A model generated the notes under the pieces. That model was not told where the DNA came from. It saw only the letters and a list, made by a program, of their open reading frames with translations, and did no database searches. The position numbers and the translations under genes are program-made. Positions 10,552 through 36,221 of a DNA stretch of 64,000 bases are shown here, in pieces. The stretch lies in NCBI GenBank assembly GCA_965262675.1, contig OZ253554.1, positions 3,220,640 through 3,284,639 of the forward strand. The letters run 5' to 3'. This DNA comes from Terriglobia bacterium. Its GTDB lineage: Bacteria; Acidobacteriota; Terriglobia; 20CM-2-55-15. The stretch's first letter is position 1. Every line of letters starts with the position of its first letter.

Positions 10552-10947
10552 TCATGGCGTTTCGATAGACGATCCCGCGAACAGGCGCCGACCATCCTGG
10601 GTAATAACCCGGGCATTGCAGGTATCGGTTCCATCGTGAGCGCGGAAACCCTCGATCTGCACGTCATCTCCGGTCTTCAGCGTTTCGCTGGTCCACCCAA
10701 GACGGCGTAACGAATTGGGCGTCCCGCCCTCGCACTGCCAGTTCTCGACATCCCCATCCGCATTTCTGACATCCAGATAGAACCAGATATGCGGATTGGT
10801 CCACTCCACCTTCGTGATCTCTCCATCGAGTTCAACGGATTGGTCGGAATCGAAGACCGCCGCAAACGAGTGATGGGCCAACGCCGCGGCCGGTAGTAAC
10901 AGGGCGACTGTACAAAGTGTCAGTATTGCTTTCATCATTCCTTTCAT
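10552..10947 (-). CDS. Small secreted protein, paralog family B (mature N-terminus HHSFAAVFD)
   Basis: Signal peptide ends ...AAALA, then HHSFAAVFD, followed by W.NPH and DGRRLFAGSS motifs. Paralogous to 26764..27186 and 35796..36221. GGAGG Shine-Dalgarno 5 nt upstream of ATG 10947. Confidence 0.7.
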   Translation of the reverse strand: MKGMMKAILTLCTVALLLPAAALAHHSFAAVFDSDQSVELDGEITKVEWTNPHIWFYLDVRNADGDVENWQCEGGTPNSLRRLGWTSETLKTGDDVQIEGFRAHDGTDTCNARVITQDGRRLFAGSSIETP

Positions 10948-11109
10948 CCGGGCCTCCGACCGGCTGAATGTTTCTTCCACCGCAGTGGACGGACCGGCCA
11001 GAACGGATGGTACAAGTGGCCGTTGAAGAGGTCAAGGAAAAGGCTGAAATACGTCCCTCCTGAACATCTTGGAGAGCCAATCCGATGCAACGTCTCTTGA
11101 CACCCGCTC

Positions 11110-11139
11110 TTGACACCCGCGAACAACCGTACCCATAAT
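11110..11139 (+). promoter_or_regulatory. Sigma70-like promoter for the family A gene at 11181, with a duplicated -35 element
   Basis: TTGACA (11110), 18-nt spacer, CATAAT (11134). The 13-bp segment tcttgacacccgc is tandemly duplicated, giving a second TTGACA at 11097. Confidence 0.4.
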
Positions 11140-11180
11140 CGGGGCCACTATCGATCGCCACACCAGACAAGGGGTTCCCA

Positions 11181-11942
11181 ATGAAAATTCGCTTCTCGAA
11201 TTGGACCGTTGTATTCGCTGCCGTTGCCACGATCCTGCTGCTCGTACCAACTGCGACCGAAGCCCAGGACTCGATACCGCGACTCCAGAACGGCAAGCCC
11301 GACTTCAGCGGCATCTGGGACAAGCCGCGTGTGGGCAACATCGTCACGGACTCGAACACCTGCGGTGCGGCGAGCACGGGATGCGTTCAGGAAGGCGCCG
11401 GCGAACCCCCCTACACGGAACTGGGTCAGGCACGTTGGGACGGATATCGAAACGACTGGACCGGCTATTGTCTGCCCTGGGGATATACGCGGGCCTTGCA
11501 GACCTCATATCCGGTCGAGATCGTCCATACCCCCCGTCGCATGGCGTTCCTGTACGAATCCAACAACATTTTTCACGTCGTGAATGTGGACGGAGAACAG
11601 CCAGAAAACCTGGAAGCAACATGGATGGGACGATCGGTATCGCGCTGGGAAGGCGATACGCTGATTATCGATACCCGCGGATTCAACGGAAAGACCTATA
11701 TTGACACGGCGGAACATCCGATGAGTCCCGACATGGTCATCACTGAACGCATCGGCTATATCGATGCCGATCACCTCTCCTATCAGGTCACCTGGAACGA
11801 CCCCGTCATGTACACCCAGCCATTATCTAACAACCGCATCTTCGTTCGAATGGCGCCCGACGCCGAGCTTTTCGAATACTGGTGCATGGAAAACAACAAG
11901 GATCTGCTTGAAGGCCGGCTGCCGCCGCTGATCGAACAGTAG
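11181..11942 (+). CDS. Secreted protein, paralog family A (PDFSGIW / CLPWG / WEGDTLIID motifs)
   Basis: Signal peptide followed by PDFSGIWD, WEGDTLIIDTRGFNGKTY and a C-terminal EYWCMENN Cys. Four other paralogs lie in the window. Confidence 0.75.
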   Translation: MKIRFSNWTVVFAAVATILLLVPTATEAQDSIPRLQNGKPDFSGIWDKPRVGNIVTDSNTCGAASTGCVQEGAGEPPYTELGQARWDGYRNDWTGYCLPWGYTRALQTSYPVEIVHTPRRMAFLYESNNIFHVVNVDGEQPENLEATWMGRSVSRWEGDTLIIDTRGFNGKTYIDTAEHPMSPDMVITERIGYIDADHLSYQVTWNDPVMYTQPLSNNRIFVRMAPDAELFEYWCMENNKDLLEGRLPPLIEQ

Positions 11943-12600: not shown

Positions 12601-12758
12601 AGACCTTTTCTCCTCGTCAGCGGGGACGTTATCAGAATTCGGGGTTCGAATTGTATCACCCGCGCAAAGCTTGTCAACCGAGCAGCAGTCGTTGCGCCCG
12701 GCGGTCTATTCTGAAAGAATCCCCACAGTTTCTTGACCGGCCGAGAGGGTCGTGACCA

Positions 12759-14229: not shown

Positions 14230-14285
14230 GAGCCTGCTTTTCTCACGGGTTGTCTGCTACAGCGCCGGATTCATGCGCCCTGGCG

Positions 14286-14420: not shown

Positions 14421-14477
14421 GCTCTGACGGCGTCTCCGACTCTTCGCGACGAAAACCCGAAAAAAAGGCAGCCTGAA

Positions 14478-19102: not shown

Positions 19103-19335
19103 GACACCAAAAACTCGGTAATGTCTCGGTTCGAATGCCGTCAGAGACAAACTCCACAATCTCAAACCTGGACACTACGAACAGTTCTTTTTCCTATGCA
19201 GTAGCCCTCAGCTAAAATACCATGCTTGGAAGCTTTGGAACGGGTTGCATAGTTCTCTTGATAAACGACTTCGCCCACGGGGAATTGCTCGTGATCGAGT
19301 GCTTGGGAACGCTCAACGTTAAGGAAGGGTGGTCG

Positions 19336-20997
19336 ATGATTCGTAGTCTGCAATTTGCTGTTGTGCTCCTGTCGGTGGCTGTATTGGGCGGCACGATCGT
19401 CCGGGCTGCGCAGAATAGTGCCGTGGCCGACGCTGCACAGGCGGGCGATCTCATTGGTCTCGGCAACCTCATCGCGTCGAACGCGGATGTGAACGCACCA
19501 TCGGGCGACGGATCCTCTCCGCTGCTTTGGGCGGCCTACAGGTTCGACGTCGAGATGGCCGAGGTTCTCATCGCTGCCGGCGCCGATCTGAACCTTGCCA
19601 ATAACTACGGGATCACGCCTCTTCTCCAGGCGGCTCGGACCGGCGACGCGGCGATGACCGAAGTCCTGCTCCAGGCCGGCGCCAATCCCAATCTCGCCCA
19701 CACCGAGGGCGAAACACCCTTGATGGCCGCATCGCGCGCGGGCAGTGTTGCCGCCGTGCGCCTGCTGATCGACAACGGCGCCATCGTGAATGCTGTGGAT
19801 ACGTTTCAGAACCAGACCGCGCTGATGTGGGCCTCGGTGGAAGGGCAACTCGATGTCGTGGATGTGCTGCTTTCCGAAGGCGCCAATCCCAATCATCGGG
19901 CTCGGGTATCGTCGATCGCCTCACGCAGAAACGCGGATCATCCGACAGGGGGCTTCACGGCCCTGATGTGGGCTGCAAGAAACGGCGAGGAAGATACCGC
20001 GCGGCGGTTGGTCGAAGGGGGAGCGGACCTCAACCTCAAGAACGGCGACGGCGCTTCAGCTACCATGATCGCCATCTACAATGACCGCTTCGATACGGCG
20101 GGGACACTGATCGACCTAGGCGCCGACGTCAATGACGGATCGCTGTACACCGCAGTCGAGATGCGTCGGTCGACGACAGACCAGTTTGCTTTCGACGGCT
20201 CGCGCCTGCGCCCGAATCACGAGAACAGGCTAATGGCTCTGAATCTGATCGCCACCTTGCTCGAGCGCGGCGCCGACCCGCACCAGTGGTTTCAGGGCCA
20301 GTTTCATTCGACGTCGATGCCCAACGGCGACCGATTCGCCAATTCGCCGTTTTTCCGCGCGGCGGTTTCCGCAGACGTCGAAACACTGAAGGTCTTTCTT
20401 CCCTATGTATCCGATATCGATCAGGCGCTGGTTGTCCCGGAGGTTGAAGACGACGGTGGGAGCGGCGGTCCGGGCGGCCGCGGCCGGGCCAATCCCAACG
20501 CCGGCCGGACTGCGGCCATGGCGGCTATGACCGGAGGTCGCGCTCCGGCAATGACGGGTGGTCCGGGATACATCCGATCCGGCGAGGCGCCCTATCGCGA
20601 ACCGGGGAGCCGGAAGCCCGAAGACGCGTTTGCCCTGTTGCTCGACGCCGGTGCGAACCCCGATGCCAAAGCGCCGGATGGTTCGACGTTGCTGCACCAA
20701 GCCGTCCGGTCTCGCAATCTCGACATCATTCGGGCGCTCGGCGATGCCGGCGTCGACTACAACCAGGCCGACGATGACAGCTTGACGGCACTCGACGTTG
20801 CCGAAGGCAGACGACCCGAGGGCGAGGAAGACCCTGGCGCCGGCCCGGCTGGCGGGGGCGGCGGTCGCGGGGGTCCCCCTCCTCCTGAAGTCGCGGCGCT
20901 GCTGCGTGAACTGATGGGCTTGCCGCCGGCGCCCGAACCGCCAGCGGTTATCGAAGATGAAGACGCACCTTTGACGCCGGCCGGAGACGCTCAATGA
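19336..20997 (+). CDS. Secreted ankyrin-repeat protein
   Basis: Signal peptide, then at least 8 ankyrin repeats (G.TPL..AA..G......LL..GA..N motifs). C-terminal Gly/Pro-rich tail. AAGGAAG Shine-Dalgarno 9 nt upstream. The stop overlaps the next gene (ATGA). Confidence 0.8.
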   Translation: MIRSLQFAVVLLSVAVLGGTIVRAAQNSAVADAAQAGDLIGLGNLIASNADVNAPSGDGSSPLLWAAYRFDVEMAEVLIAAGADLNLANNYGITPLLQAARTGDAAMTEVLLQAGANPNLAHTEGETPLMAASRAGSVAAVRLLIDNGAIVNAVDTFQNQTALMWASVEGQLDVVDVLLSEGANPNHRARVSSIASRRNADHPTGGFTALMWAARNGEEDTARRLVEGGADLNLKNGDGASATMIAIYNDRFDTAGTLIDLGADVNDGSLYTAVEMRRSTTDQFAFDGSRLRPNHENRLMALNLIATLLERGADPHQWFQGQFHSTSMPNGDRFANSPFFRAAVSADVETLKVFLPYVSDIDQALVVPEVEDDGGSGGPGGRGRANPNAGRTAAMAAMTGGRAPAMTGGPGYIRSGEAPYREPGSRKPEDAFALLLDAGANPDAKAPDGSTLLHQAVRSRNLDIIRALGDAGVDYNQADDDSLTALDVAEGRRPEGEEDPGAGPAGGGGGRGGPPPPEVAALLRELMGLPPAPEPPAVIEDEDAPLTPAGDAQ

Positions 20998-23423
20998 AGA
21001 GGATGCTTCTCCAAACGGCGGCGCTGATCCTCGTCCTCGCCGGCCTTCCGGCCCTCAGCGAAGCCCGGCAATCGCTGGCGGACTACCAGGGGTTGGTTGA
21101 TCAATACTGTGTCACCTGCCATAACCAGCAGACGCGCATACCCGCAGGGGCGCCGCTCGCGCTGGACACGGTAAACCTTCAAGACCCCAGTGCGGATGCC
21201 GGGATTTGGGAGAAAGTCGTTCGCAAGCTCGGCCTGGGCGCGATGCCTCCACAGGGTGCGCCGACACCTGGTCCGGACGAATTGACGGCGTTCCGATCGA
21301 CATTGATCGCCAGCCTCGACGACGCCGCGGCGCAAACGGACAGCCCGGGACGCTACGTCCTGCACCGTCTGAATCGCAGCGAATACGGCAACGCCGTCCG
21401 CGACCTGTTGGGTGTCGAAGTGGATGTCAGCGAACTCCTCCCGAGCGATGGCGGCGACTTCGGGTTCGACAACATCGCATCGGCGCTCACGATTACCCCG
21501 ATCCTTCTCGAGGGATACCTCTCGGCCGCGTTGCGCATTGCCGATCTTGCGATCGGCGATGTCGAGGCCGAACCGGGCACGTCGACCTATTCGATCAGCA
21601 CGATCGTCACACAGAGGGAGCACGTGGAAGGACTGCCGCTCGGGACGCGAGGCGGCATTGCGGTGACCCATACGTTCCCGGCCGACGGCGAGTACGTGTT
21701 CTATGGACGGCTCCTGCGCACGGTTGCGGAAGGCTACGTCGGGGTCGAGGGCCATGAATCGCCGTTTGACTTCATCGTGACGGTCGATGGCGAGCAGGTG
21801 TTTTCGGCGCCGGTCGGCGGGAGAGAAGACCACGAGTCCAGTTCGGAAAACATCACAGTATCGAAAGATGAAATCGACGAGCGCATGACCTCGCCGCCGA
21901 TCCCGGTTACGGCGGGTCCGCACAAGATCGGATTCACGTTCATCGATCGGCCCACTCAGGAACAGAACGTGTGGAAACCGGTGCTGCGCGAGAGCCTGGA
22001 AGCACACAACCCCTCGGGCATTCCGAGGTTGCGAGCCGGAAACGTCGAAGGACCTTACAACGTCACGGGCATCGGCGACACGCCGACGCGCCGGCGCCTG
22101 TTTACGTGTCAGCCGGCATCGGCGGCCGACGAAGCCCCGTGCGCTGCTGAAATATTGTCCAATGTGGCAAGACGCGCCTTCCGGCGGCCCGTCGACGCCC
22201 CGGACATACAGGCGCCGATTGCCTTCTACGACGCTGCTCGATCCGAAGGTGGCGACTTCGACGCCGGAATCCGCGCGGGTCTGGTTCGGATCCTGGCCAG
22301 TCCGTCATTCGTATTTCGTGCGGAAGAAGACCCGGCGAACCTTCCGCCCGGCGCCGCGCATCGCATCACCGATATCGAACTGGCTTCACGCCTGTCGTTC
22401 TTCCTCTGGAGCAGCATTCCCGACGATGAGTTGCTGGATCTGGCCATCGCTGGCCGATTGAGTGAGCCGGACGTTCTGGAGGCTCAGGTCGGGCGAATGA
22501 TCGCCGATGGCCGGGCCGACGCAATGATCACCGAGTTCGTCGGACAGTGGCTCCAACTCCGCAACATCGACAAGGTAACGCCCGATCTTCTGATGTTCCC
22601 GGACTTCGACGACAACGTCCGGCAGGCGTTCCGCCGCGAAACCGAACTGTTCTTCACGAGCATCGTTCGCCAGAATCGAAGCGCGCTGGAGCTTCTGGAT
22701 GCCGACTATACGTACCTTAACGAACGGCTCGCACGGCACTACGGCATCCGGGGCGTCCTTGGTTCCCAGTTCCGCCGGGTGCGGGTGGAAGATCCGAATC
22801 GGCGGGGCCTGTTGGGCCATGGCAGTGTCCTTACGCTGACCTCGGCCGCGAATCGGACCTCGCCCATCATCCGCGGGAAGTATGTGATTTCGAATCTTCT
22901 GAACACGCCGCCGCTGCCGCCGCCGGCCAACGTGCCGTTGCTGGAGGAGAGCGCGCCGGCGGACCGGCCTTCAACGGTCCGTGAACAACTGGAACTGCAT
23001 CGTGCGAATCCGGCATGCGCGGCTTGCCATCGCAATATCGACCCCGTCGGATTTGCGCTGGAGAACTTCAATGCGGTGGGCCAGTGGCAGGATACGACTC
23101 GAGAGGGGCTGGAGATCGATTCCGCGGGAGTTCTGGTCGACGGTACGTCGGTCGACGGTCCCCTGGAACTGAGGAACGCACTCCTCGCCAGACCCGAGGT
23201 GTTCGTTGGCACGGTCACCGAAAAGTTGATGACCTACGCCTTGGGGCGGGGACTCGAACCCATCGATCTGCCCGTGGTACGCCGCATCATGAACGACGCC
23301 GCGACAGATGATTACGCCATGCAATCGATAATTCTGGGGATCGTCCGAAGTTCCGCCTTTCAGATGCGTACCAAGTTGACGGATACTGTTCCAATCAATC
23401 GACAGACAGCAGAGAGGGATTAG
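20994..23423 (+). CDS. DUF1587/DUF1592/DUF1595/DUF1588/DUF1585 multidomain protein with N-terminal CxxCH (PSD1-like)
   Basis: Signal peptide and a CVTCHN heme-binding motif. The classic partner of DUF1552 proteins in Planctomycetes, Acidobacteria and Verrucomicrobia. Confidence 0.85.
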   Translation: MKRMLLQTAALILVLAGLPALSEARQSLADYQGLVDQYCVTCHNQQTRIPAGAPLALDTVNLQDPSADAGIWEKVVRKLGLGAMPPQGAPTPGPDELTAFRSTLIASLDDAAAQTDSPGRYVLHRLNRSEYGNAVRDLLGVEVDVSELLPSDGGDFGFDNIASALTITPILLEGYLSAALRIADLAIGDVEAEPGTSTYSISTIVTQREHVEGLPLGTRGGIAVTHTFPADGEYVFYGRLLRTVAEGYVGVEGHESPFDFIVTVDGEQVFSAPVGGREDHESSSENITVSKDEIDERMTSPPIPVTAGPHKIGFTFIDRPTQEQNVWKPVLRESLEAHNPSGIPRLRAGNVEGPYNVTGIGDTPTRRRLFTCQPASAADEAPCAAEILSNVARRAFRRPVDAPDIQAPIAFYDAARSEGGDFDAGIRAGLVRILASPSFVFRAEEDPANLPPGAAHRITDIELASRLSFFLWSSIPDDELLDLAIAGRLSEPDVLEAQVGRMIADGRADAMITEFVGQWLQLRNIDKVTPDLLMFPDFDDNVRQAFRRETELFFTSIVRQNRSALELLDADYTYLNERLARHYGIRGVLGSQFRRVRVEDPNRRGLLGHGSVLTLTSAANRTSPIIRGKYVISNLLNTPPLPPPANVPLLEESAPADRPSTVREQLELHRANPACAACHRNIDPVGFALENFNAVGQWQDTTREGLEIDSAGVLVDGTSVDGPLELRNALLARPEVFVGTVTEKLMTYALGRGLEPIDLPVVRRIMNDAATDDYAMQSIILGIVRSSAFQMRTKLTDTVPINRQTAERD

Positions 23424-23426
23424 CCC

Positions 23427-24995: not shown

Positions 24996-25838
24996 ATGAG
25001 ATCCATCGTTTCAAAGTTCCCGAAGACATCGGGGTGTGCCACGGCCGCCATCGTCCTGATTGCCGCGGCCTGCGTCTGGACCGAAGAGGCCACCGCGAGG
25101 CAGACCGGCGATGCCGCCGGTGCAACGATTCCACGAACCGCGGATGGACGTCCGGACTTTCAGGGCATCTGGCAGGTTCGGAACCGGGCCTCGTACAACC
25201 TGGAAGATCACGCCGCGGGGTACGGCATGCCTCCCGGCCGGAGCGTGGTCGATGGCGGGCGAATTCCCTACCAGGCGGCCGCGGTCGAACAAAGGGACGC
25301 GAACTTCAGAGACCGGGAAACCGCCGATCCGCTTTCAAAGTGCTACATGCCAGGCGTTCCGCGGATCATGTACATGGAGCATCCCTTTCAGATTTTTCAA
25401 ACCCCCGACCACATTGCGATGACTTTCGAATGGTCGCTGGTCCACCGACTGATCTACACCGATGGGGAACCGCAACGATATTCCGGACTGGAGTTCTGGA
25501 TGGGGGATTCGCGCGGCCGCTGGGAAGGCGACACGCTGGTCGTTGACGTGACCGGCCACAACAACCGCACATGGTTCGACATGTCCGGCAACTTTCACAG
25601 TGAGGCGATGCGACTGGTTGAGCGGTATACGATGCTCGACCCGGACACCATCGAATACGAGGCGACGATCGAGGATCCCCAGGTGTTCACCCAGCCATGG
25701 ACGATCCGTATGCCGATCTATCGGCACAAGGACATGGACCGGGTCCTCGAGTATCATTGCCAGGCCGAAGTCGAAGAGGCGAACGGGGCGTTCGAACGCG
25801 ATGAACGCACCTGGTATCCTGGGCGGTCGGAGCCATGA
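24996..25838 (+). CDS. Secreted protein, paralog family A
   Basis: PDFQGIWQ, CYMPGVPR, WEGDTLVVDVTGHN and EYHCQAE motifs. Track ORF trimmed to ATG 24996, which has a GGAG Shine-Dalgarno. Confidence 0.75.
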   Translation: MRSIVSKFPKTSGCATAAIVLIAAACVWTEEATARQTGDAAGATIPRTADGRPDFQGIWQVRNRASYNLEDHAAGYGMPPGRSVVDGGRIPYQAAAVEQRDANFRDRETADPLSKCYMPGVPRIMYMEHPFQIFQTPDHIAMTFEWSLVHRLIYTDGEPQRYSGLEFWMGDSRGRWEGDTLVVDVTGHNNRTWFDMSGNFHSEAMRLVERYTMLDPDTIEYEATIEDPQVFTQPWTIRMPIYRHKDMDRVLEYHCQAEVEEANGAFERDERTWYPGRSEP

Positions 25839-26767
25839 GTCACATTCCGAACGCCCCTTCGAGCACCCTTTTCAATCGAGCAATCCGAATGAACCACCCG
25901 AGAAATCCGATGAAACGACGGCGCAATTTCCTGCTTCGAGCCGTTCTGGCGGCAGCGATAACGACACCCCTGGCGATGGCGCCGCAATCCTATGCGGCCC
26001 AGGGACGTGGGAGTGCGGATTCGGCGCCGTCCGGACCCATTCGCCGACTGCCGGATGGCACGCCCGACATTTCGGGCCTCTACCAAGCCGACGGAGGAGG
26101 CGCAAACTACGGACTCGAACAGAAACCCCGGGACTTTCTGACTCCGGCGTCAAGAGGCGTGGTTGTCGATCCGCCCGATGGCATACTGCCGTACCAGGAA
26201 TGGGCGCGAGCGGAACGGATCGACCGCTATCTTCCTCACCGTGGATATGACGATCCGACGGCACATTGTTTCGTGGCCGCAGGCGTCCCACGTTCCCATT
26301 ACGTACCGTCCCCGTTCCAGATACTGCTGCCTCCCGGATATGTCGTTATTCTGTTCGAGCGGATGGCCTGGCGCCAGATTCCCCTTGACGGGCGGGATCA
26401 CATTCCGGAAGACATCCGGCTATGGAACGGCGACTCCGTGGGCCGATGGGAAGGCGATACGCTGGTCGTCGAGACCACGAACATGAACGGCAAGACATGG
26501 CTGAACGAAGTCGGAGACGTGGTCAGTCACGCGCAGACCACCGTCGAACGGTTCACGCCTCTGGATGCCGATACCATCACATACCAGGCCACGGTGACCG
26601 ATCCCATCGCCTACACGGCGCCGTGGACGATGGAAATACCATTGAACCGCAGGGACGACGAAATCCTCGAGGTCGCGTGTCTCGAAGACAATCAGGATCT
26701 GGAACATCTCAAGGATGTCCGCGACGCATGGCGGGCGGAACAAGGACAAGGAGAGACTGGACGATGA
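25835..26767 (+). CDS. Secreted protein, paralog family A (Tat-like RRRNFLLRA signal)
   Basis: PDISGLYQ, CFVAAGVPRS, WEGDTLVVETTNMN and EVACLEDN motifs. Start ambiguous (25835, 25889 or 25910). The stops overlap the neighbouring genes. Confidence 0.7.
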   Translation: MSHIPNAPSSTLFNRAIRMNHPRNPMKRRRNFLLRAVLAAAITTPLAMAPQSYAAQGRGSADSAPSGPIRRLPDGTPDISGLYQADGGGANYGLEQKPRDFLTPASRGVVVDPPDGILPYQEWARAERIDRYLPHRGYDDPTAHCFVAAGVPRSHYVPSPFQILLPPGYVVILFERMAWRQIPLDGRDHIPEDIRLWNGDSVGRWEGDTLVVETTNMNGKTWLNEVGDVVSHAQTTVERFTPLDADTITYQATVTDPIAYTAPWTMEIPLNRRDDEILEVACLEDNQDLEHLKDVRDAWRAEQGQGETGR

Positions 26768-27186
26768 GGGTTAATTTCAGCAGAACGATACGCGCGCTCG
26801 CCACGATTGCGTTCGCCGTGGGCGTGTTTGCCGTTTCGGCCGGCGCACATCACGCCTTCACCGCGGAGTTCGACCCGAACAGCCCGATCGAGGTCACTGG
26901 CAAGGTGACGGATATGTTGTGGTCCAATCCACATGCCTGGATCTATATCGATGTCGAAGGACCCGATGGCGAGGTCGTCAACTGGTCATTCGAGTCGGGT
27001 TCGGCGAACGGGTTGATCCGGCGCGGATGGCGGAAAGAAGACCTGATCTTCGGCACCGAACTTGTGATCACGGGCTGGCAGGTACGCAGTGGAGGACCCT
27101 CCGGGAACGCCAGCAGCATCACTCTTCCGGACGGGCGCCGACTGTTTGCCGGCACGTCCAACCCCGACGCTCAGGAGAACGAGTAA
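26764..27186 (+). CDS. Small secreted protein, paralog family B (mature N-terminus HHAFTAEFD)
   Basis: Signal ...VSAGA, then HHAFTAEFD; WSNPHAWIY; DGRRLFAGTS. ATGA overlap with the upstream family A gene. Confidence 0.75.
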   Translation: MRVNFSRTIRALATIAFAVGVFAVSAGAHHAFTAEFDPNSPIEVTGKVTDMLWSNPHAWIYIDVEGPDGEVVNWSFESGSANGLIRRGWRKEDLIFGTELVITGWQVRSGGPSGNASSITLPDGRRLFAGTSNPDAQENE

Positions 27187-27245: not shown

Positions 27246-28976
27246 TTATTCCGGCAACGCGAACACGTAGATCTCATTGTGGCCGCTTGGCGGATTGACG
27301 CCCGCGCCCCGTGCCAGGGCACCGCCCTTGTCGCCTGTTGTGACCGCGACATATTGCGTACCGTCCACGGCATAGGTGATGGTGCTGATCGAAATCGGCC
27401 CGCCCAGGACGGATTCCCAGAGCTGTTCCCCCGTATCCACATCATAGGCACGGAAACGGCGGTTCACGTCGCCGTGAAATACGACGCCGCCTGCCGTCGC
27501 GAGAGTGGATCCCGTGCTGGGAATGGCACTGACCCCGAAGCGCATGATTTCGCCCGTATCCAGATTCACCTTCGCGACACCTGCGAACTCGTCGGGATTC
27601 CCTTCGGGACGTGCCTCGCCGAACCGCCGTTCGCGGTTGTCACCGTCGGCTCGAGTCATGTTGAGGCAGTTGTCGACATAGGGAATGTATAGCGAATTTG
27701 TGCCGGGGTGGAACGAAGACGGCCAGAAACTGGTCGTGTTGAAGAAGCAGATCAGATGGTTTTCGCCCGGTTCCTTCAGGACGAGGTCCCAGTTGAGCTC
27801 GGTCCGGCCCGTGGCGCCATCGATGTTCGAAATCAGGAATCGTTCGGTGTCGAACGGAAACGGCGTGGCCCAGAGGAACTCGCCCGTTCGGCGGTCGTTC
27901 ACAAATATACCTCCGCCCTCTCCCACCATTACCGTGGCGTCGCGTTCCTCGCCGCGAGGAACGTTCGGATTGAACCACTTGACGTATTCCGGCTCGGGGT
28001 TGAAACGGATCGTGGTCAAGATCCGTTCGTTGGTGTAGTCCTCGTCCCAGTCGTCCCCGGGAAGGTGTTGGAAATACCATTTCAACTCACCGGTGTCCGG
28101 GTCCAGCGCCAGCGTGGAGTTACTGTACAGATCCGAAGGCGACGTGCGCGGAATCGTGTCGACTTCGCCGTCATGACGCGCCGCCCGCGTGTTTGGCATC
28201 GGATTGGCGACGCCCCACAGCACGGTATTGGTTTCGGGGTCGTAGGATCCGGGCAGGCCCCAGGTCGATGCCATGTTCCTGTCGTGCGTTTCAGGAGACG
28301 GGTTGCCCCAGGTTTCGTATCCTGGCTCGCCCGGACCGGGAACCGTAAAAAACTTCCACAGTTCCTCGCCGGTTTCGATGTCGTGGGCAGCGATGAAGCA
28401 GCTCTCGCGGGTCCGTGCGCATGCGCGTCCGGAAATCACCTTGCCGTTGACGGCCACGGGGCCGGAAGTGTGGTCGGCTTCACCGGCATAGGTCTGCCAC
28501 CGGACCTCGCCATTGACCGCGTCCAGAGCGACAATGTAGCCGTCGGGCGCCGTGTATAAGATCACGTCGCCATAGATCGCCAGGGTCTTGGTTCGTGCCC
28601 GCCCGGCGGCATCGCCCGCATCGTGGCGATATTCCCACAAGCTGTCGCCGTTGGTGGCATCGACCGCGCGCACGACGGCGCCGGGCTCGACGATATACAT
28701 CACGCCGTCGTGGACTATCGGAATCGCTTCGGCGCTGCCATTGTTCATTCCCCGAGACCAGGCCAGGGTGAGCCCCTCGACATTGTCCCTGTCGATCTGT
28801 TCCAGCGGGCTGAACCGTTGCGCATCGTAGGTGCGACTGAACATGAGCCAGTCGTCGGGACTCGGGTTCTGGAGCATCGCGTCGGAAACCGGCTGGTAGT
28901 CCGGAACCTGAGCGATGGCGGAAGGAACGAACAACAGGAACAATGAAATAGCGGTCAAGTGTCGAGTGAGTCTCAT
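27246..28976 (-). CDS. PQQ-dependent alcohol dehydrogenase-type quinoprotein (8-bladed propeller)
   Basis: Signal peptide. Tryptophan docking repeats and overall similarity to the methanol/ethanol dehydrogenase family. Trimmed to ATG 28976, which has a GGAGG Shine-Dalgarno. Confidence 0.85.
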   Translation of the reverse strand: MRLTRHLTAISLFLLFVPSAIAQVPDYQPVSDAMLQNPSPDDWLMFSRTYDAQRFSPLEQIDRDNVEGLTLAWSRGMNNGSAEAIPIVHDGVMYIVEPGAVVRAVDATNGDSLWEYRHDAGDAAGRARTKTLAIYGDVILYTAPDGYIVALDAVNGEVRWQTYAGEADHTSGPVAVNGKVISGRACARTRESCFIAAHDIETGEELWKFFTVPGPGEPGYETWGNPSPETHDRNMASTWGLPGSYDPETNTVLWGVANPMPNTRAARHDGEVDTIPRTSPSDLYSNSTLALDPDTGELKWYFQHLPGDDWDEDYTNERILTTIRFNPEPEYVKWFNPNVPRGEERDATVMVGEGGGIFVNDRRTGEFLWATPFPFDTERFLISNIDGATGRTELNWDLVLKEPGENHLICFFNTTSFWPSSFHPGTNSLYIPYVDNCLNMTRADGDNRERRFGEARPEGNPDEFAGVAKVNLDTGEIMRFGVSAIPSTGSTLATAGGVVFHGDVNRRFRAYDVDTGEQLWESVLGGPISISTITYAVDGTQYVAVTTGDKGGALARGAGVNPPSGHNEIYVFALPE

Positions 28977-29256: not shown

Positions 29257-30552
29257 CTACTGATCTTCTTCGTCGAACTCTTCTTCTCCCAGGCGGAAAG
29301 CCTGGGCCAGTTCCGGGTCGTCGTCGATCCCTAGCGCACGCCGAGCGATGTACTCCCCGATTACCGGTCCCGACTTGAAGGCCTCGGCCGAACCGCCTCC
29401 GGCCAGCCAGACGTTGTCGAAGTCGGGGTGTTGATCGATGATGAAGTTGCGGGTCACGCTGAACTCGTAGTGGCAGGACCGCGTTTCGTTGATTGCGGCG
29501 CCCACGAGATCGGGGAAATGCCGTTCCAGAATCTGACGCGGCTGATCGTGATACCGGGAATCGATCCATCGATCGCTCACGTCGGGGTCGGCGGGCGGGC
29601 GGCCGCCCGTTCGTACGCGGAAACCCCTGTAATCGGGTCCCAGCGCGGGCCAGCCCGTAACCCCGGGGATGCCATAGCTGGGCATGTTGGGGTAGACCCA
29701 CCGCGGGTCTCCGGGCGGCGTGGCGAAGTAGTAGACATGGCCCATCGGAATGCGGATACGGCGTCCCATCAGTTCGGGAAACACTTTGGGAAACCAGGGG
29801 CCGCAAGCGAAAACGAACGTCGACGATGCGATCGAATCCCCGGTTTCGAGCGTGACCGTTTGAAGAGCGCCGCCGGACCGGCTGCCGACGGAAGCGCGGC
29901 CCAAGACCAGCGCGCCGCCCTCCTGTAGAAACACCTGGGCCACGGATTCGATCGCACGGCGCGCCCGGACCACACCCGCGCCGGGTTCGTAGAGAGCGGC
30001 CCCGAGGTTTTCGAACCGGATCCAGGGCCACCGATTAGTGACTTCGTCAGGGCTCAGGAACTCGTAGGGAATCCCCAGGGCGTCCCAGTTTGCGGCGGAC
30101 CGCTCCAGATAGGGGATCATCTCCTCACGAAGGATCAGGTCTCCGGTGTTGTAGAACAACGGCGGCAGGAGCCGGTCGGTGTTTTCCTCGTCCCAGTCTC
30201 TCCAGCGCCGGATCGACTCGACGGCCCAGCGTGTCCAGAGCAGTCCGTGCGCCTCGTCGCCGTATGCGCTGCGGACGCCGCGGGTTTCCCCTCCCGAACT
30301 GGACCTGGAGTTTGCCGGCCCATACGGGTCGACCACGGTGACCGACGCGCCGAGGCGGAGCAGGTGGAGCGCCGTCCACATCCCGAACGAGCCCGCGCCG
30401 ACAACGACCACATCGGGAGAGCCGGCCTGGGGTTTGCCGACGGATGTGAGGCTGAACGTTCCCCGCGCGGCACCCGGAGCCGCGAGGCCGAGAGCCGCTG
30501 TCTTGAGGAAGGTCCGACGGTGGAGCGACGCCTCTTTTCTTCTGGAAGTCAT
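29257..30552 (-). CDS. FAD-dependent oxidoreductase (DAO/sarcosine-oxidase-like), Tat-exported
   Basis: Tat motif HRRTFLKTAALGLAA followed by the VVVVGAGSFGMW Rossmann motif. Track ORF 29257..31341 trimmed to the internal ATG. Confidence 0.8.
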   Translation of the reverse strand: MTSRRKEASLHRRTFLKTAALGLAAPGAARGTFSLTSVGKPQAGSPDVVVVGAGSFGMWTALHLLRLGASVTVVDPYGPANSRSSSGGETRGVRSAYGDEAHGLLWTRWAVESIRRWRDWDEENTDRLLPPLFYNTGDLILREEMIPYLERSAANWDALGIPYEFLSPDEVTNRWPWIRFENLGAALYEPGAGVVRARRAIESVAQVFLQEGGALVLGRASVGSRSGGALQTVTLETGDSIASSTFVFACGPWFPKVFPELMGRRIRIPMGHVYYFATPPGDPRWVYPNMPSYGIPGVTGWPALGPDYRGFRVRTGGRPPADPDVSDRWIDSRYHDQPRQILERHFPDLVGAAINETRSCHYEFSVTRNFIIDQHPDFDNVWLAGGGSAEAFKSGPVIGEYIARRALGIDDDPELAQAFRLGEEEFDEEDQ

Positions 30553-30752: not shown

Positions 30753-32735
30753 TCAGGGAAGCGCCATCGCCGTCAGCGTGCTTCCGGTTTGAAGCATCAC
30801 ATACTGTTTGCCATCGTAAACGTACGTCATCATACCGTAACGACTGCCGGCCGGAACATCCACCGTACCCACGCGCTCTCCCGTCGCCTTGTCGACCGCA
30901 TAGAGGCGTGGGGAACCGTCGCCCGCGGCGCCGGCATAGATCAGCAACGTTTCGGTCACGGTCATCGGCGCGACGTTGCCCGAGCCCGTGTTCGGGATGT
31001 CCATTCCCTGTAAGTCGGGATGATTCGCGACGCGGTCGGGCGTATCGCCGACCGGAATCCACCAGAGGTGATCCCCGGTGTTCATGTCGATTGCCGTGAT
31101 CCGGCTGTAGGGTGGCTTGTACAGAGGCAAACCGTCGGGTCCGCGAGCCGCCGCGCTTCCCCCCACCGCGAAATCGGCGATCGTCGTGCCGGTGGGTGCG
31201 TCCTCGCGTGCATCGCGCTCGGCGCCTGGGACAATGATCCGCGAGGTGCATGCCTTGCGCGAGGTCACGTACAGGATTCCCGTTGCGGGATCGGCGGCCG
31301 CCGGCCCGTCGATGTTCACGCCGCCGACATCTCCGGGACACCAGAGCGCCCCGCGCTTGTCGAGGTCGTTATCCCGATGAAGCGGGGGATTGAACAAGGG
31401 GCCGATCTGGAACGGCTCGAGCGCTTGGAGCGCCCGCTCCCTCAACTCGGGAGTGAAATCGATCAGGTCGTCGACCGTGAGCCCTTGCATATCGTACGGC
31501 GCCGGGCGGGTCGGGAAAGGCTGGGTCGGGGACAGTTGTTCGCTTGGAACGAGCGATGCCGGGACCGGGCGCTCCTCGATCGGCCAGAGGGGCTCCCCGG
31601 TCTCGCGGTGGAACGCGTACGCGAAGGCCTGCTTCGTCACCTGCACGACGGCGGGAACCTCTTCCCCGTCGACGGTCACGTCGAGCAGCACGGGCGCCGT
31701 CGGTGTGTCGTAATTCCAGATGTCGTGATGCACGAGTTGGTAGTGCCAGGCTCGCTCTCCGGTCTGCACGTCCAGTGCGATCAGGCTGGTGCTGAACAGG
31801 TTGTCCCCGGGCCGGAACCCCCCGTAGAAGTCGATCGTGGCCCCGTTGGTCGGAATGTAGACGATGCCCCGCTCCGGGTCCGCCGCCATCGGCGCCCATG
31901 ACGACACGTCGCCGGTCCATTCCCATGCGTCGTTTTCCCACGTTTCGTGACCGAACTCGCCGGGGCGGGGAATGACGTTGAACTTCCACAGGAATTCTCC
32001 CGTCCGGGCGTCGTAGGCCAGAATGTCTCCCGGAATATTCTCGATGCGCGACTGGTTGTAGCCTTGTTCCGCCGAATTGCCCACGATCACGACATCGTTG
32101 ATGACGATGGGCGGGGACGACGCGGTGATGTAGCCGACTTCCAGCGGGATACCGTCATAGACATCGTACTCGTGGCCCAGATCGGCGAGCAGGTCGACCG
32201 AGCCGGTCGGCCCGAACCCGTCAATCGGAACGGACCCGCCGAAGCCTTCCAGAGGCTGGCCCGTCCCGGCGTCCAGGGCATGGAGGAAGAACGCCGGTGT
32301 CGTGATGTACACGACGCCGCGGCCGTCGATCTCCGCGTATGCGACGCCCTTTCCGTAGTCCTGCCGCATGGAGTATTCCCACCGGCCGGTGTTGGGCTCG
32401 CGGAACGACCAGAGCGTCTCTCCGCTTGCGGCATCGAGTGCGACGACGTGGCGGCGTGGACCGGCGACCGTATACAGCTTGCCGTCGGCGTAGACCGGGG
32501 TCGAGCGCCCGCTGGCGGCGTCAAAGCTGGCGCCGTCCCAGACCCATGCTTCCTGAAGGTTCTCGAAGTTGGAAGCGTCAATCTGGTCGGCCGGAGAGTA
32601 TCGCGTGTGCCGGGCATCGCCTCCGACGAAGCGCCACTGGCCGTCTTCGGTCCCGGTCTGCGCTCCGAGCAGGGCGGGGGTCCACAGGATGCCGGCGGCA
32701 ATGAGCGCCGTTGCGTATCGTCCGGGTAGGATCAT
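30753..32735 (-). CDS. PQQ-dependent dehydrogenase (quinoprotein), secreted
   Basis: Signal peptide MILPGRYATALIAAGILWTPALLGAQ. PQQ propeller repeats (for example AxDxxTGExLW ...). Trimmed from 33308 to ATG 32735, which has an AAGGAGAG Shine-Dalgarno. Confidence 0.85.
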   Translation of the reverse strand: MILPGRYATALIAAGILWTPALLGAQTGTEDGQWRFVGGDARHTRYSPADQIDASNFENLQEAWVWDGASFDAASGRSTPVYADGKLYTVAGPRRHVVALDAASGETLWSFREPNTGRWEYSMRQDYGKGVAYAEIDGRGVVYITTPAFFLHALDAGTGQPLEGFGGSVPIDGFGPTGSVDLLADLGHEYDVYDGIPLEVGYITASSPPIVINDVVIVGNSAEQGYNQSRIENIPGDILAYDARTGEFLWKFNVIPRPGEFGHETWENDAWEWTGDVSSWAPMAADPERGIVYIPTNGATIDFYGGFRPGDNLFSTSLIALDVQTGERAWHYQLVHHDIWNYDTPTAPVLLDVTVDGEEVPAVVQVTKQAFAYAFHRETGEPLWPIEERPVPASLVPSEQLSPTQPFPTRPAPYDMQGLTVDDLIDFTPELRERALQALEPFQIGPLFNPPLHRDNDLDKRGALWCPGDVGGVNIDGPAAADPATGILYVTSRKACTSRIIVPGAERDAREDAPTGTTIADFAVGGSAAARGPDGLPLYKPPYSRITAIDMNTGDHLWWIPVGDTPDRVANHPDLQGMDIPNTGSGNVAPMTVTETLLIYAGAAGDGSPRLYAVDKATGERVGTVDVPAGSRYGMMTYVYDGKQYVMLQTGSTLTAMALP

Positions 32736-33204: not shown

Positions 33205-34035
33205 ATGAAAGACGGGTTGCGTGGTGGAATCATGGTCCTGGCCGTGGCGGCGGCGATCGTCTCGATAGGGGTGGGAACCACAGCCGCACAGTCGGCGGGC
33301 TCGGACATTCAACGTGCCTGGGACGGCAACCCCGATCTGAACGGGATCTGGCAGGCAATCGGTACCGCACATTGGGACATCCAGGATCATGCGGCCGCCG
33401 CGGGGCTGCCCGAAATGGGAGCGATCGGTGCGATTCCTCCGGGCCAGGGCGTAGTGGACGGCAACGAAATCCCGTATCGGGAATGGGCTCTCGAACAAAG
33501 GCGACAGAATTTCGAGAACCGCTTCACCGAGGATCCCGAGATCAAGTGCTACATGCCGGGCGTCCCACGCTCGACCTATCTCCCGTATCCATTCCAGATC
33601 GTCCAGGGAACCGGCAAGATGATGATGGTCTACGGGTTTGCCGAAACCAATCGCACCATTCACATGGACAAGGAAAACCCTGAGCCCGCGCCTATCGACA
33701 GTTGGATGGGGCGGTCCCACGGGCAATGGGAAGGCGACACGCTCGTCGTGGATGTCGCCGGTTTCAATGGGCAGTCGTGGTTCGACCGGGCAGGTAACTT
33801 TGCCAGCAGCACGTTGCACGTGGTCGAGCGGTATACCCCGATGGGCGCCAATGCAATCATGTACGAGGCCGTCATCGAAGATCCGAACGTGTTCACACGC
33901 CCATGGACCATGCGGATGCCCCTGTATCGACGTCTGGAAGACAACATCCAGATCCTGGAATTCAAGTGCGTCGAATTCTCCGAAGAACTTCTTTATGGCC
34001 ATCTGCGCCGGCAATCGCCAGACCGAGACCAGTAA
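33205..34035 (+). CDS. Secreted protein, paralog family A
   Basis: PDLNGIWQ, CYMPGVPRS, WEGDTLVVDVAGFN and EFKCVEFS motifs. AAGGGGAG Shine-Dalgarno. Confidence 0.75.
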   Translation: MKDGLRGGIMVLAVAAAIVSIGVGTTAAQSAGSDIQRAWDGNPDLNGIWQAIGTAHWDIQDHAAAAGLPEMGAIGAIPPGQGVVDGNEIPYREWALEQRRQNFENRFTEDPEIKCYMPGVPRSTYLPYPFQIVQGTGKMMMVYGFAETNRTIHMDKENPEPAPIDSWMGRSHGQWEGDTLVVDVAGFNGQSWFDRAGNFASSTLHVVERYTPMGANAIMYEAVIEDPNVFTRPWTMRMPLYRRLEDNIQILEFKCVEFSEELLYGHLRRQSPDRDQ

Positions 34036-34050
34036 CGAGGTAAACACGCC

Positions 34051-35790
34051 ATGAAAGCGAAACGTGCAGTCCATATGCTCCTTATCGGAATCGCGTTGGC
34101 CGCCGCCGTGTCAGGCGTGGCCCGCGCAGCCGATTATCATCATGTCCACCTCGCGGTCCCGAGCCCGACCGAAGCGGTCGCATGGTATGAGCGGTACATG
34201 GAGTGTGAGGCGATTCCGGAACGCACGGACGCCGTCTCGTGCGGCGGTGTGGAGATCCATTTCGATGTCCTCATCACGGTGGGCGGGAGCCAGGGCACCG
34301 GCGTGAACCATATCGGCTTCTCGTTCGCGGATCTGACAGGCAAGATGACGGAACTCGAAGGAGTGGGCGTCGGGGGCCGGGGCGTGCGACTCCAACGGTT
34401 CGACGACGGCTCGACTCTGAGCGACGTACCGGGACTGTTCACTCACGGCTTTGTGTTCGATCCGTGGGGGACGCGCATCGAACTCGTGGAGGACCCGAAT
34501 TATCTCGGGTTCCATCATGTCCACCTGAGTTCCACCGACCCGGAAGCGAGCCTGGACTGGTATCGGGAGAATCTGGGGGGCGAGAGAGCCCGCCTCAACG
34601 GACAACTCGACGGACTGTTGTTCGACAACGTGTGGCTCATCGTTTCGGCCCACCCCGAGGGTACGCCCCCGCCGGCGCCTACCGTGGGCCGGGCAATCGA
34701 TCACATCGGTTTTCTCGTATCCGACCTGGACGAGGCAGCGGCCGACATGAGTGAACGCGGGGTTGCGCTCGAGGGCACGGAGACTGGCCGGACATCGGCG
34801 AGACGGGCCTTCATTGCGGGTCCGGACAACGTGGCTCTCGCGGTTGTGGAGCCGGGATGGGAGGGGGTCGTTGCAAATTCTCTGGCAGCGGACATCGGCG
34901 CCGTTCCACTTGGAGAACCGTACACGGTGCCCAGAACGCCGTGGGGCACCCCGGATCTGCAGGGCGTCTGGACTTCGAACCGGGCACACGGCATTCCTCT
35001 CGAACGCCCCCTGGACCTGGCGGACATCGAGGAACTGACTCCCGAAGAAGCCGCCGCGCGCCGCGAACGGGGAACGCTGGGAAGCATTTGGGGTTACGAA
35101 CGGGAATGGCGCGATACGACACTGGGGTTGGTCGGTTCGTCGCCGTCGACCCAGGTGGCCATGGTGGTCGACCCGCCCGACGGACGCGTCCCCCCGCTGA
35201 CGCCGGAAGCCCAGGCGCGGACCGGCGGGGGACGCGGAGGCCGAGGCGGCCTGCCGGCGGGGCCCGAAGACCTGAGCAATTACGTGCGGTGCATCACGCG
35301 GGGTCTGCCCAGCCTGATGATGCCGGGCATCTACAACAACGGCCTGCAGATCGTGCAAAGCCCCGGTCATGTCGCGATTCAGAAGGAGATGATCCACGAA
35401 ACCCGGATCGTTCCAACCGACCCGAAACCGTATCTGGGAGAGAACCTGACCCAGTGGCTCGGCGATTCGCGCGGCCGCTGGGAAGGCGACACGCTGGTGG
35501 TCGAGGTGACCAACTTCAATGGAAGGGCCGTATACCGGAATTCCAGCACGGCGATGAAACTGACCGAGCGTTTCACGCGCATCGGTCCCGAGACGCTGAT
35601 GTACGAATTTACCATCGACGATCCGTCCACGTGGACTCGGCCATGGACCGCGATGTTCACGTTCGAGAAGGACGACGACCAGTATGAACTGGTCGAATAC
35701 GCCTGCCATGAAGGCAACTACGGAATGACAAACATCCTGAACGGCGCCCGCGCGCAGGAATTGGCCGCCGACGAAGACACCGGGAGATAA
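34051..35790 (+). CDS. Fusion protein: two VOC (glyoxalase/dioxygenase-like) domains plus a C-terminal family A domain
   Basis: The N-terminal half has two HVHLAV/HVHLSS ... HIGFSF/HIGFLV VOC-type repeats. The C-terminal half carries PDLQGVW, CITRGLPS, WEGDTLVVEVTNFN and EYACHEGN motifs. Confidence 0.75.
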   Translation: MKAKRAVHMLLIGIALAAAVSGVARAADYHHVHLAVPSPTEAVAWYERYMECEAIPERTDAVSCGGVEIHFDVLITVGGSQGTGVNHIGFSFADLTGKMTELEGVGVGGRGVRLQRFDDGSTLSDVPGLFTHGFVFDPWGTRIELVEDPNYLGFHHVHLSSTDPEASLDWYRENLGGERARLNGQLDGLLFDNVWLIVSAHPEGTPPPAPTVGRAIDHIGFLVSDLDEAAADMSERGVALEGTETGRTSARRAFIAGPDNVALAVVEPGWEGVVANSLAADIGAVPLGEPYTVPRTPWGTPDLQGVWTSNRAHGIPLERPLDLADIEELTPEEAAARRERGTLGSIWGYEREWRDTTLGLVGSSPSTQVAMVVDPPDGRVPPLTPEAQARTGGGRGGRGGLPAGPEDLSNYVRCITRGLPSLMMPGIYNNGLQIVQSPGHVAIQKEMIHETRIVPTDPKPYLGENLTQWLGDSRGRWEGDTLVVEVTNFNGRAVYRNSSTAMKLTERFTRIGPETLMYEFTIDDPSTWTRPWTAMFTFEKDDDQYELVEYACHEGNYGMTNILNGARAQELAADEDTGR

Positions 35791-35795
35791 GACCC

Positions 35796-36221
35796 ATGCG
35801 AACGACTCTTGCCGTCATTCTGGCCTCTGCTCTCATCCTTACGGGCACCGCCCCGTTGATGGCGCACCATGCGTTTTCCGCGGAGTTCGATTCCACCAAG
35901 CCTGTCCGAATACGTGGCAAGATCACGCGCATGGAATGGATCAATCCCCATGCCTGGATGCACCTCGACGTGACACAGGATGACGGCACGGTAGAAAGCT
36001 GGATGATCGAGGCCGGCCCCCCGGGCGCGCTTGTCCGCAGGGGATGGAACAGGGATTCGGTGGTTGTCGGCACGGAGGTGCTGGTGGAAGGCTATCGGGC
36101 TCTGGACGGGTCGAACCGGGCCAACGGCCGCGATGTGACGTTCCCGGACGGCCGCCGGTTGTTCGCGGGATCCTCCGGCACGGGCGCGCCAATCGATGGG
36201 ACCGACCCCACCGAGCGGTAG
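35796..36221 (+). CDS. Small secreted protein, paralog family B (mature N-terminus HHAFSAEFD)
   Basis: Signal ...APLMA, then HHAFSAEFD; WINPHAWMH; DGRRLFAGSS. Confidence 0.75.
   Translation: MRTTLAVILASALILTGTAPLMAHHAFSAEFDSTKPVRIRGKITRMEWINPHAWMHLDVTQDDGTVESWMIEAGPPGALVRRGWNRDSVVVGTEVLVEGYRALDGSNRANGRDVTFPDGRRLFAGSSGTGAPIDGTDPTER

Follow-up and report, generated by a model that had tools for sequence, protein, structure and literature searches.

A recurrent secreted gene module pairing a predicted calycin-type barrel protein with the DUF6152 protein in a Terriglobia bacterium and other bacteria

A stretch of 64,000 nucleotides from a Terriglobia bacterium (Acidobacteriota; assembly GCA_965262675.1, contig OZ253554.1, positions 3,220,640 to 3,284,639), here called the window, contained two families of genes for secreted proteins, A and B, arranged in repeated units. 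An old module was present three times in the window, as a divergent B/A pair (B1 and A1), an A-A'-B operon (A2, A3, and B2), and an A-(VOC-A')-B operon (A4, A5, and B3). Here A denotes the distal and A' the B-proximal type of family A protein, and VOC refers to the vicinal oxygen chelate superfamily. In all likelihood A, A', and B belong together as a single unit, whether physical or functional, and B, judging by its predicted mature sequence, probably binds a metal via its N-terminus. The reading tentatively favored for the whole is a conserved periplasmic A/A'/B complex, with an N-terminal-histidine metal site on B, that may serve small-molecule processing.

Profile hidden Markov models (HMMs) of the two families were run over all reading frames of at least 50 codons in the six frames of the window and found exactly five copies of family A and three of family B. 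These were the copy numbers given by an initial annotation of this DNA, and BLASTP searches within each family agreed with them (family A: E values of 1e-16 to 1e-78, 29–45% identity; family B: 1e-34 to 1e-41, 42–51% identity). All eight genes were present in the open reading frame map where that annotation had placed them (Table 1). Public gene callers predicted the same genes, and RefSeq annotates such genes in cultured strains. The shared motifs that had been quoted for the two families were found with small deviations (PDISGLY in A3, where a final Trp was expected, and CLPWGYTR in A1).

All three B copies matched the Pfam family DUF6152 (PF19649; gathering threshold 27 bits) at 100–112 bits, with alignments over about 90 of the model's 98 positions. 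Family A belongs to no curated family: at E ≤ 0.1 neither Pfam nor NCBIfam held a match for A1 to A4 or for the A domain of A5. RefSeq names reflect this, with B listed as "DUF6152 family protein" and A as "hypothetical protein." The initial annotation had allowed that both might map to well-characterized families; neither did. A sequence-profile search of the PDB with A and B returned nothing significant (best for A, E = 0.28). Both families were large. Each had more than 8,000 word-sharing candidates in a database clustered at 90% identity, and for family A clustering at 50% identity left 20,435 representatives at E ≤ 0.001, 11,593 of them with E ≤ 1e-10.

Table 1. Family A and B genes of the window and neighboring genes (positions within the 64,000-nucleotide stretch; OB, oligonucleotide/oligosaccharide-binding; PQQ, pyrroloquinoline quinone; FAD, flavin adenine dinucleotide; Tat, twin-arginine translocation)
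Feature	Position	Strand	Remarks
B1	10552..10947	-	DUF6152 OB-fold protein; PF19649 103.7 bits; divergent from A1
A1	11181..11942	+	BLASTP E 1e-28 to 1e-31 against A2 to A4
Ankyrin-repeat, DUF1592 (PSD/PSCyt), DUF1552 (HXXSHH) block	19222..24755	+	Assigned by Pfam; directly upstream of A2
A2	24996..25838	+	Distal (position-1) A of the A-A'-B operon
A3	25910..26767	+	B-proximal (position-2) A' of the A-A'-B operon
B2	26764..27186	+	DUF6152 OB-fold protein; PF19649 100.2 bits
PQQ-dependent dehydrogenase	27246..28976	-	PF01011 184 bits; convergent with B2
DAO-type FAD oxidoreductase	29257..30552	-	PF01266 164 bits; RRTFLK Tat motif
PQQ-dependent dehydrogenase	30753..32735	-	PF01011 574 bits; divergent from A4
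A4	33205..34035	+	Distal (position-1) A of the A-(VOC-A')-B operon
A5	34051..35790	+	Secreted fusion: two VOC modules (~34051-34900) and position-2 A' domain (~34900-35790)
B3	35796..36221	+	DUF6152 OB-fold protein; PF19649 111.9 bits

The pairing of A and B was followed in 160 loci: the 80 best loci for family A from GTDB reference genomes (A-anchored) and 80 metagenome contigs centered on family B (B-anchored). Within the B-anchored set, 33 contigs with at least 900 bp of flank on both sides formed an informative subset. B was present in 59 of the 80 A-anchored loci and lay within 500 bp of an A gene in 57, with few exceptions on the same strand; two or more A genes were present in 76 of these loci. 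Reciprocally, an A gene was found within 500 bp in 69 of the 80 B-anchored loci, and 31 of the 33 informative contigs had an adjacent A gene on the same strand, usually upstream of B. The A-anchored loci represented the following taxa: Acidobacteriota (Bryobacterales, Vicinamibacterales, and Holophagales), Gemmatimonadota, Derxia, Gammaproteobacteria (Steroidobacteraceae and Ca. Rariloculaceae), Rhodospirillaceae, and Hyphomonadaceae. Absence of A/B co-occurrence in other genomes, which the initial annotation had named as the outcome that would count against it, was thus not what these loci showed.

Family A and B domains also occurred within single proteins. In total, 11 uninterrupted reading frames in six loci encoded B-A fusions, each with B first and a single signal peptide, the A part having none of its own. 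None of the fusion reading frames had the order A-B. One B-A example was located at L070:1358-2536 on the minus strand. Separate genes were mostly ordered A then B, and the reversed order of the fusions would be expected if the N-terminus of B must stay free. Six further reading frames, such as the A-A' frame at L004:6550-8181, were A-A fusions, which explain the A homologs of 450–490 residues. Cytochrome c-A fusions were limited to a single A reading frame (L010) among the 345 of the 160 loci and one sequence among database representatives (P0246); in both (L010:2941-4164 and P0246) a monoheme cytochrome c (PF13442) was N-terminal to a distal-type A. With the reciprocal co-occurrence and the B-A fusions, the repeated A-B unit of the initial annotation stands as a real secreted gene module.

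Across the 160 loci the order A-B was found 40 times, A-A-B 32 times, and A-(VOC-A)-B at least 13 times; B-A and B-A-A were also found. The A-B pair had been proposed as the functional unit, and the pairing is real, but the unit is more often A-A'-B. The VOC-A architecture of A5 recurred in about 20 of the 160 loci (E values of 1e-87 to 1e-130), and in one lineage (L166-L171) the VOC protein was encoded by a stand-alone secreted gene between A and A' (7187-7981, plus strand, in L166). The gene order in that lineage (6336-11725) was A, secreted VOC, A', B, a 729-residue DUF6351 (tannase-like) protein, and a GT4 glycosyltransferase.

The position of an A gene within its operon corresponded to its sequence. 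For position-1 A genes, the nearest neighbor in another locus was also a position-1 gene in 35 of 37 cases; for position-2 A genes it was a position-2 or lone B-adjacent A in 40 of 42. In the window, A2 and A4 were of the distal type, and A3 and the C-terminus of A5 of the B-proximal type. The closest relatives of A2 were the position-1 genes of L004 and L005 (352 and 345 bits), those of A4 the position-1 genes of L048 and L042 (437 and 433 bits), and those of A3 the position-2 genes of L004 and L005, whose A and A' are one fused protein. The A subfamilies are therefore ancient and position-specific by sequence comparison, and A-A'-B and A-(VOC-A')-B are each conserved as an operon type in their own right. 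A local duplication, as implied by the initial description of expanded co-localized paralogs, does not account for the window copies, since membership in position-specific subfamilies indicates no recent local expansion.

Within the window, the start codons of the divergent A1/B1 pair were 233 bp apart. The most likely start of B1 is the ATG at 10947, preceded by a GGAGG sequence, and the predicted mature protein begins HHSFAAVFD; A1 was the most divergent family A copy of the window, at about 30% identity to the others. The start of A3 is probably 25910, the choice of the public gene caller, with an alternative at 25835. From 25910, A3 starts MKRRRNFLLRAV (25910-25990) and has a Tat-like RRRNFLL signal; the other A copies in the window look Sec-type. 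Overlapping stop and start codons had been claimed throughout both operons. The only certain overlap was the ATGA shared by the A3 stop and the B2 start, while the A4/A5 and A5/B3 junctions had gaps of 15 nt and 5 nt, respectively. No regulatory RNA, metal riboswitches included, was found in an Rfam scan of 9.5-37.5 kb, and a consensus scan for promoters and terminators performed no better than on shuffled sequence.

The AlphaFold check proposed in the initial annotation, with one member of each family, gave a calycin-type barrel for A2 and an OB-fold for B3, both at moderate confidence. The A2 model (m3a0a381ed441; AlphaFold2) had a mean predicted local distance difference test score (pLDDT) of 74, with most barrel strands at 85–96. 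Its conserved N-terminal part, about 90 residues long, led into an antiparallel barrel of 8–10 strands that could be superposed on lipocalins and fatty acid-binding proteins (FABPs). Among 263 divergent A domains (median identity 34%), a Cys pair (C116 and C255 of A2) was conserved at 98–99%, and the conserved polar residues were Q135, R151, E209, R210, Y221, D227, and E252 (A2 numbering). Signal peptides of family A were judged by eye, and this judgment agreed with the earlier statement that all A copies have one. Tat export was rejected as a family A trait: even a loose pattern matched only 12 of 236 sequences, and the signals were of the Sec type instead.

The B3 model (m9445c69910af; pLDDT 79) was an OB-fold. 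Near-full-length B domains shared only about 25–35% identity, and all 169 of them contained a His-His pair, in 167 cases after a hydrophobic stretch. In all 169, position -1 was occupied by A, G, S, or T; the residue at -3 was small or aliphatic. This family-wide -1/-3 pattern, by which the signal peptides of B were assigned, is that of a canonical signal-peptidase I site, so mature B is predicted in silico to begin His1-His2. An Asn-Pro-His (NPH) motif was present in 167 of the 169 domains, with an offset of 26 residues in 159, and an Asp (mature position 9), a Trp, and a Glu were each more than 95% conserved.

The N-terminal half of A5 matched the Pfam Glyoxalase family (PF00903) at 48.4 bits against a cut-off of 20.6, which places it in the VOC superfamily, and the family HMM located the A domain at about residues 290–579. 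The earlier description of A5 as a signal peptide, two VOC modules, and an A domain was borne out by these matches. Five residues of the VOC half (H87, E144, H155, H158, and H218) were at least 90% conserved in 19 homologs. The VOC half scored far below every NCBIfam equivalog cut-off, and no enzyme type could be assigned to it.

Module copy number and company varied among loci. The most extreme expansion was nine A and eight B domains in 20 kb in L048 (Ca. Rariloculaceae, OZ250159.1:253081-273833). Several B-A fusion frames stood head to tail in this locus, as they did in L070 and L057. Cultured carriers included Novosphingobium humi (L164, plasmid NZ_CP117419.1), with a GH39-like Tat protein, A, B, and a TetR regulator next to electron transfer flavoprotein (ETF)/beta-oxidation genes; Croceibacterium atlanticum (L165, plasmid NZ_CP011453.2), with B-B-A followed by a TonB-dependent receptor and a MarR regulator; and Derxia lacustris HL-12 (L082), with B-A-A. 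The module genes are PQ457_RS21825 and RS21820 in N. humi KACC 19094, whose B protein is WP_273620494.1, and WYH_RS16155-16165 in C. atlanticum 26DY36. In several loci (L030, L033, L040, L058, L059, and L082) a gene for a DUF6644 membrane protein, weakly similar to CopD, lay 17–52 bp from B or A, and the DUF6644/CopD-like gene came immediately after B in seven adjacent cases. A small protein with a C-terminal CxxCH and no Pfam match was often found beside DUF6644, and in N. humi (L164, 6119-7094) two DUF6644 genes were divergent from the A-B unit. TonB-type outer-membrane barrels were present in 14 of 80 loci. Other partners seen were cytochrome c genes, metallo-beta-lactamase-fold proteins, NHL-propeller proteins, the GH39-like protein, and the tannase-like DUF6351. 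Neighbor clustering gave no universal third partner gene; a candidate present in 79 of 80 loci ("cluster 1") was an antisense reading frame artifact. In high-G+C loci, for example L022:15796-19749, long frames antisense to A mimic a conserved family.

Among the other genes of the window, the identities given earlier for the two PQQ dehydrogenases and the Tat FAD oxidoreductase were as described, by Pfam and the RRTFLK motif. Their grouping as a minus-strand operon is doubtful, the genes being 200–280 nt apart rather than tightly packed. Neither PQQ enzyme had a cytochrome domain. Among the 80 genome loci, 17 had a homolog of the PQQ dehydrogenase at 27246 and 15 one of the enzyme at 30753; among the 80 metagenome loci the numbers were 7 and 6, respectively. 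Altogether, PQQ dehydrogenases were present in 22 of the 160 loci and were the commonest neighbor outside families A and B. They also lay closer to the module than random placement in the same loci would give: 11 of 23 PQQ genes were within 600 bp, against 5.8 expected (P ~0.009), and nine were on the same strand. A homolog of the DAO-type oxidoreductase was present in only 1 of 80 loci, so this gene belongs to the local context and is not conserved with the module. The link to PQQ dehydrogenases is thus real but limited to a minority of loci. The initial view of a module organized around a PQQ/FAD operon does not agree with this distribution, in which adjacency is enriched about two-fold.

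The ankyrin-repeat, DUF1592 (cytochrome-like), and DUF1552 genes had homologs in 9, 7, and 6 of 80 genome loci, respectively. These families recurred a few kb from A/B units in variable order (L004, L021, L028, L041, L065, L071, and L079), and one locus, L004 from a Bryobacteraceae metagenome-assembled genome, was fully syntenic with the window block, PQQ gene included. Several other genes stood near the units of the window. Upstream of B1/A1 (7922-10018) was a radical SAM protein of 698 residues with an HMPTM-type N-terminal zinc ribbon, found in 1 of 80 loci. The interval from 12094 to 15884, between A1/B1 and the other units, encoded an HbpS-like (GlcG) protein, a DASS-family anion transporter, and a PrpF-like protein. 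Directly after B3 (36450-37306) were a 148-residue protein without a Pfam match, for which no conservation with the module was seen, and a small VOC/3-demethylubiquinone-methyltransferase-like protein (36896) with no obvious signal peptide. The HbpS-like, DASS, PrpF, radical SAM, small VOC, and DAO genes were each considered as conserved partners and discarded, being present in 0–1 of 80 loci.

Near-obligate neighborhood together with the B-A and A-A' fusions makes it very probable that the products assemble into one complex. Secreted metalloproteins can be recognized by a conserved His that signal-peptide cleavage exposes (PMC12537917), and such a His chelates a transition metal via its free amine and imidazole in lytic polysaccharide monooxygenases (LPMOs), CopC, YcnI, DUF4198, DUF6702, and the anglerases (PMC10952591; PMC12537917). 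In B, the free amine and imidazole of His1, with His2 and/or His29 and possibly Asp9 or a Glu, would form a mononuclear transition-metal site. The N-terminal segment may pair back along strand 1 and so bring His1 beside the NPH turn, an arrangement that fits the fixed 26-residue spacing. A and A' would be the body of the complex, in which the disulfide-stapled barrel would hold a small, probably hydrophobic or aromatic, ligand near the metal site. The complex would perform or assist a metal-dependent, probably redox, processing of small periplasmic molecules and may work alongside a co-encoded periplasmic metalloenzyme, here the fused VOC and, more loosely, the PQQ dehydrogenases. The fused or co-transcribed VOC, cytochrome c, PQQ, metallo-beta-lactamase-fold, NHL-propeller, tannase-like DUF6351, and GH39-like proteins point to metal-dependent, probably redox chemistry, to which the small CxxCH proteins nearby would also be related, and up to nine A and eight B domains in 20 kb suit a substrate-diversified family better than a housekeeping chaperone. 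The "oxidation or binding system" suggested in the initial annotation remains plausible. A bolder version, which we regard as quite unlikely, would make DUF6152 a new OB-fold histidine-brace copper (or other redox-metal) oxygenase or peroxygenase to which the calycin barrel presents the substrate. The module would then be a soluble two- or three-component periplasmic oxidase with many paralogs that attacks hydrophobic or aromatic small molecules in soil Acidobacteriota, sphingomonads, and sediment Gammaproteobacteria, with electrons from cytochrome c or quinoprotein dehydrogenases.

Several observations weigh against a metal-dependent complex that processes small molecules. The N-terminal residues of the B model had pLDDT values below 50, and the proximity of His1/His2 to His29 is proposed from the fixed spacing. 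Family A had no conserved His, Met, or free Cys, and its two Cys residues fall in low-confidence segments of the model. An OB-fold would be an unusual scaffold for catalysis, and the non-LPMO proteins with an N-terminal His are mostly metal binders or transport proteins and not enzymes (PMC12537917). The cytochrome c-A fusions are rare. Partner genes varied widely between loci, none exceeding about 20%, and no substrate can be named.

The main alternative, possible though on the whole doubtful, is metal trafficking without organic chemistry. B would be a periplasmic metallochaperone or anglerase-like binder that scavenges Ni, Cu, Zn, or Fe via its N-terminal His, and A an adaptor through which the metal passes to co-encoded metalloenzymes or membrane importers. 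The invariant N-terminal His-His and NPH of B are compatible with this role, and outside the LPMOs, the characterized proteins with a conserved His right after the signal peptide bind metals and are linked to TonB receptors or permeases (PMC12537917). TonB-type barrels in 14 of 80 loci and DUF6644/CopD-like proteins 17–52 bp after B in several loci would be the corresponding partners here, and the recurrent PQQ dehydrogenases, VOC, and metallo-beta-lactamase-fold proteins are all metalloenzymes. CusF also provides a precedent for a periplasmic OB-fold metallochaperone, but B lacks the conserved Met that CusF uses. Seven to nine A and six to eight B copies in 20 kb, and ancient A/A' subfamilies, are atypical of metal chaperones, and trafficking offers no reason for obligate pairing or fusion with a barrel of the ligand-binding type. 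The regulators seen next to the units were TetR and MarR rather than metal sensors, and the 9.5-37.5 kb region had no metal riboswitch or other Rfam element. A ligand shuttle, which is unlikely, would dispense with the metal: A and A' would carry hydrophobic nutrients (lipids, sterols, or aromatics) from outer-membrane transporters to periplasmic enzymes, and B would be a lid or docking subunit with structural or pH-sensing histidines. The calycin/FABP-type fold of the A model, secretion, the many paralogs, and the adjacency to TonB-type barrels and catabolic enzymes agree with such a role, as does the N. humi unit beside TetR and beta-oxidation genes. However, invariant His1, His2, and NPH spacing at about 25–35% identity goes far beyond what a docking surface would be expected to conserve, and the polar residues conserved across all A proteins argue for one common chemistry and not for diverse cargo.

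A role as PQQ/FAD accessory, closest to the initial annotation, is very unlikely. Here A and B would act as an electron acceptor, substrate presenter, or maturation factor for quinoproteins. Its basis is the rank of PQQ dehydrogenases as commonest neighbor (22 of 160 loci), their enrichment within 600 bp (11 of 23 against 5.8 expected, P ~0.009), the lack of a cytochrome domain in both window enzymes, and the existence, though rare, of cytochrome c-A fusions. Yet about 86% of loci had no PQQ dehydrogenase in the fetched flanks, and the consistent co-occurrence by which an accessory system would be recognized was not found. The DAO enzyme was conserved in a single locus of 80, the A1/B1 pair of the window has no PQQ neighbor, the conserved operon partner is more often VOC, and neither A nor B resembles known quinoprotein accessories. 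The probability of a chance or artifactual arrangement, in which unrelated paralog families happen to be neighbors or the reading frames are spurious, is negligible. High G+C does yield many spurious long frames, and one false antisense "family" arose in clustering. Against this stand thousands of homologs of each family, reciprocal adjacency across phyla, models of both proteins that fold with moderate confidence, and the same genes in public gene calls and RefSeq; A-B co-occurrence and fusions effectively refute it.

No described system joining a calycin barrel with an N-terminal-His OB-fold protein was found in the literature searched, nor was any literature on DUF6152/PF19649, DUF6644, or a histidine brace with an OB-fold. 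The composition of the module thus appears not to have been seen before and one of its families is uncatalogued, the function being inferred. Families A and B are among the larger uncharacterized periplasmic modules of soil and sediment bacteria. If the invariant N-terminal His-His of B is indeed a metal site, B would represent a structurally new class among the N-terminal-histidine metalloproteins, a variation on known chemistry, and would be the first such protein with an obligate ligand-barrel partner. This bears on the search for copper and nickel proteins beyond LPMOs and on periplasmic substrate and metal processing in poorly studied phyla such as Acidobacteriota. The cultured carriers (Novosphingobium humi, Croceibacterium atlanticum, and Derxia lacustris) and the natural fusions make the module testable.

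Among known systems, B can be compared with the N-terminal-histidine metalloproteins LPMOs, CopC, YcnI, DUF4198, DUF6702, Ang-1, and Ang-2. Like B in its predicted mature form, these secreted or periplasmic proteins have a strictly conserved His1 that is exposed by cleavage, and additional conserved His or Asp residues farther along the chain; for some there is a link to TonB receptors or to membrane permeases (PMC12537917; PMC10952591). DUF6152 is absent from the families reported in PMC12537917. These proteins have a beta-sandwich (Ig/FnIII-like), whereas B is an OB-fold, and no fold is shared. B also differs in having two consecutive N-terminal His residues, in showing no sequence relationship to them, and in being obligately paired or fused with a barrel protein.

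CusF is a periplasmic Cu(I)/Ag(I) metallochaperone with an OB-fold, and its metal site (His, Met, and Trp) is internal and not N-terminal. Like CusF, B is a small secreted OB-fold protein, its metal-handling role being only proposed. Unlike CusF, whose partner is a resistance-nodulation-division (RND) efflux pump, B is partnered with a calycin barrel; it has neither a Pfam CusF match nor a conserved Met and is not a member of that family. Family A resembles the calycins (lipocalins, FABPs, nitrobindin/Rv2717c, and the 19 kDa subunit of Oplophorus luciferase) by fold only, at 8–17% identity. Compared with these, it adds the ~90-residue N-terminal region that carries the motifs G-x-P-D-x-x-G-x-W and C-x-x-x-G-x-P, an invariant Cys pair, and an obligate OB-fold partner, and it has no Pfam match.

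The N-terminal half of A5 is two-modular with conserved His and Glu residues, as are the VOC enzymes glyoxalase I, extradiol dioxygenases, and methylmalonyl-CoA epimerase; unlike these, it is secreted and fused to, or in an operon with, A'. The products of quinoprotein dehydrogenase gene clusters, with their accessory proteins (MxaJ/XoxJ and cytochrome cL/c550), are likewise periplasmic, and the module is sometimes co-transcribed with a PQQ dehydrogenase, but it has no homology to the known accessories and the association is found in about 14% of loci. Overall, the nearest analogs of the module would be the N-terminal-histidine metalloproteins by proposed mechanism and CusF by predicted fold and compartment.

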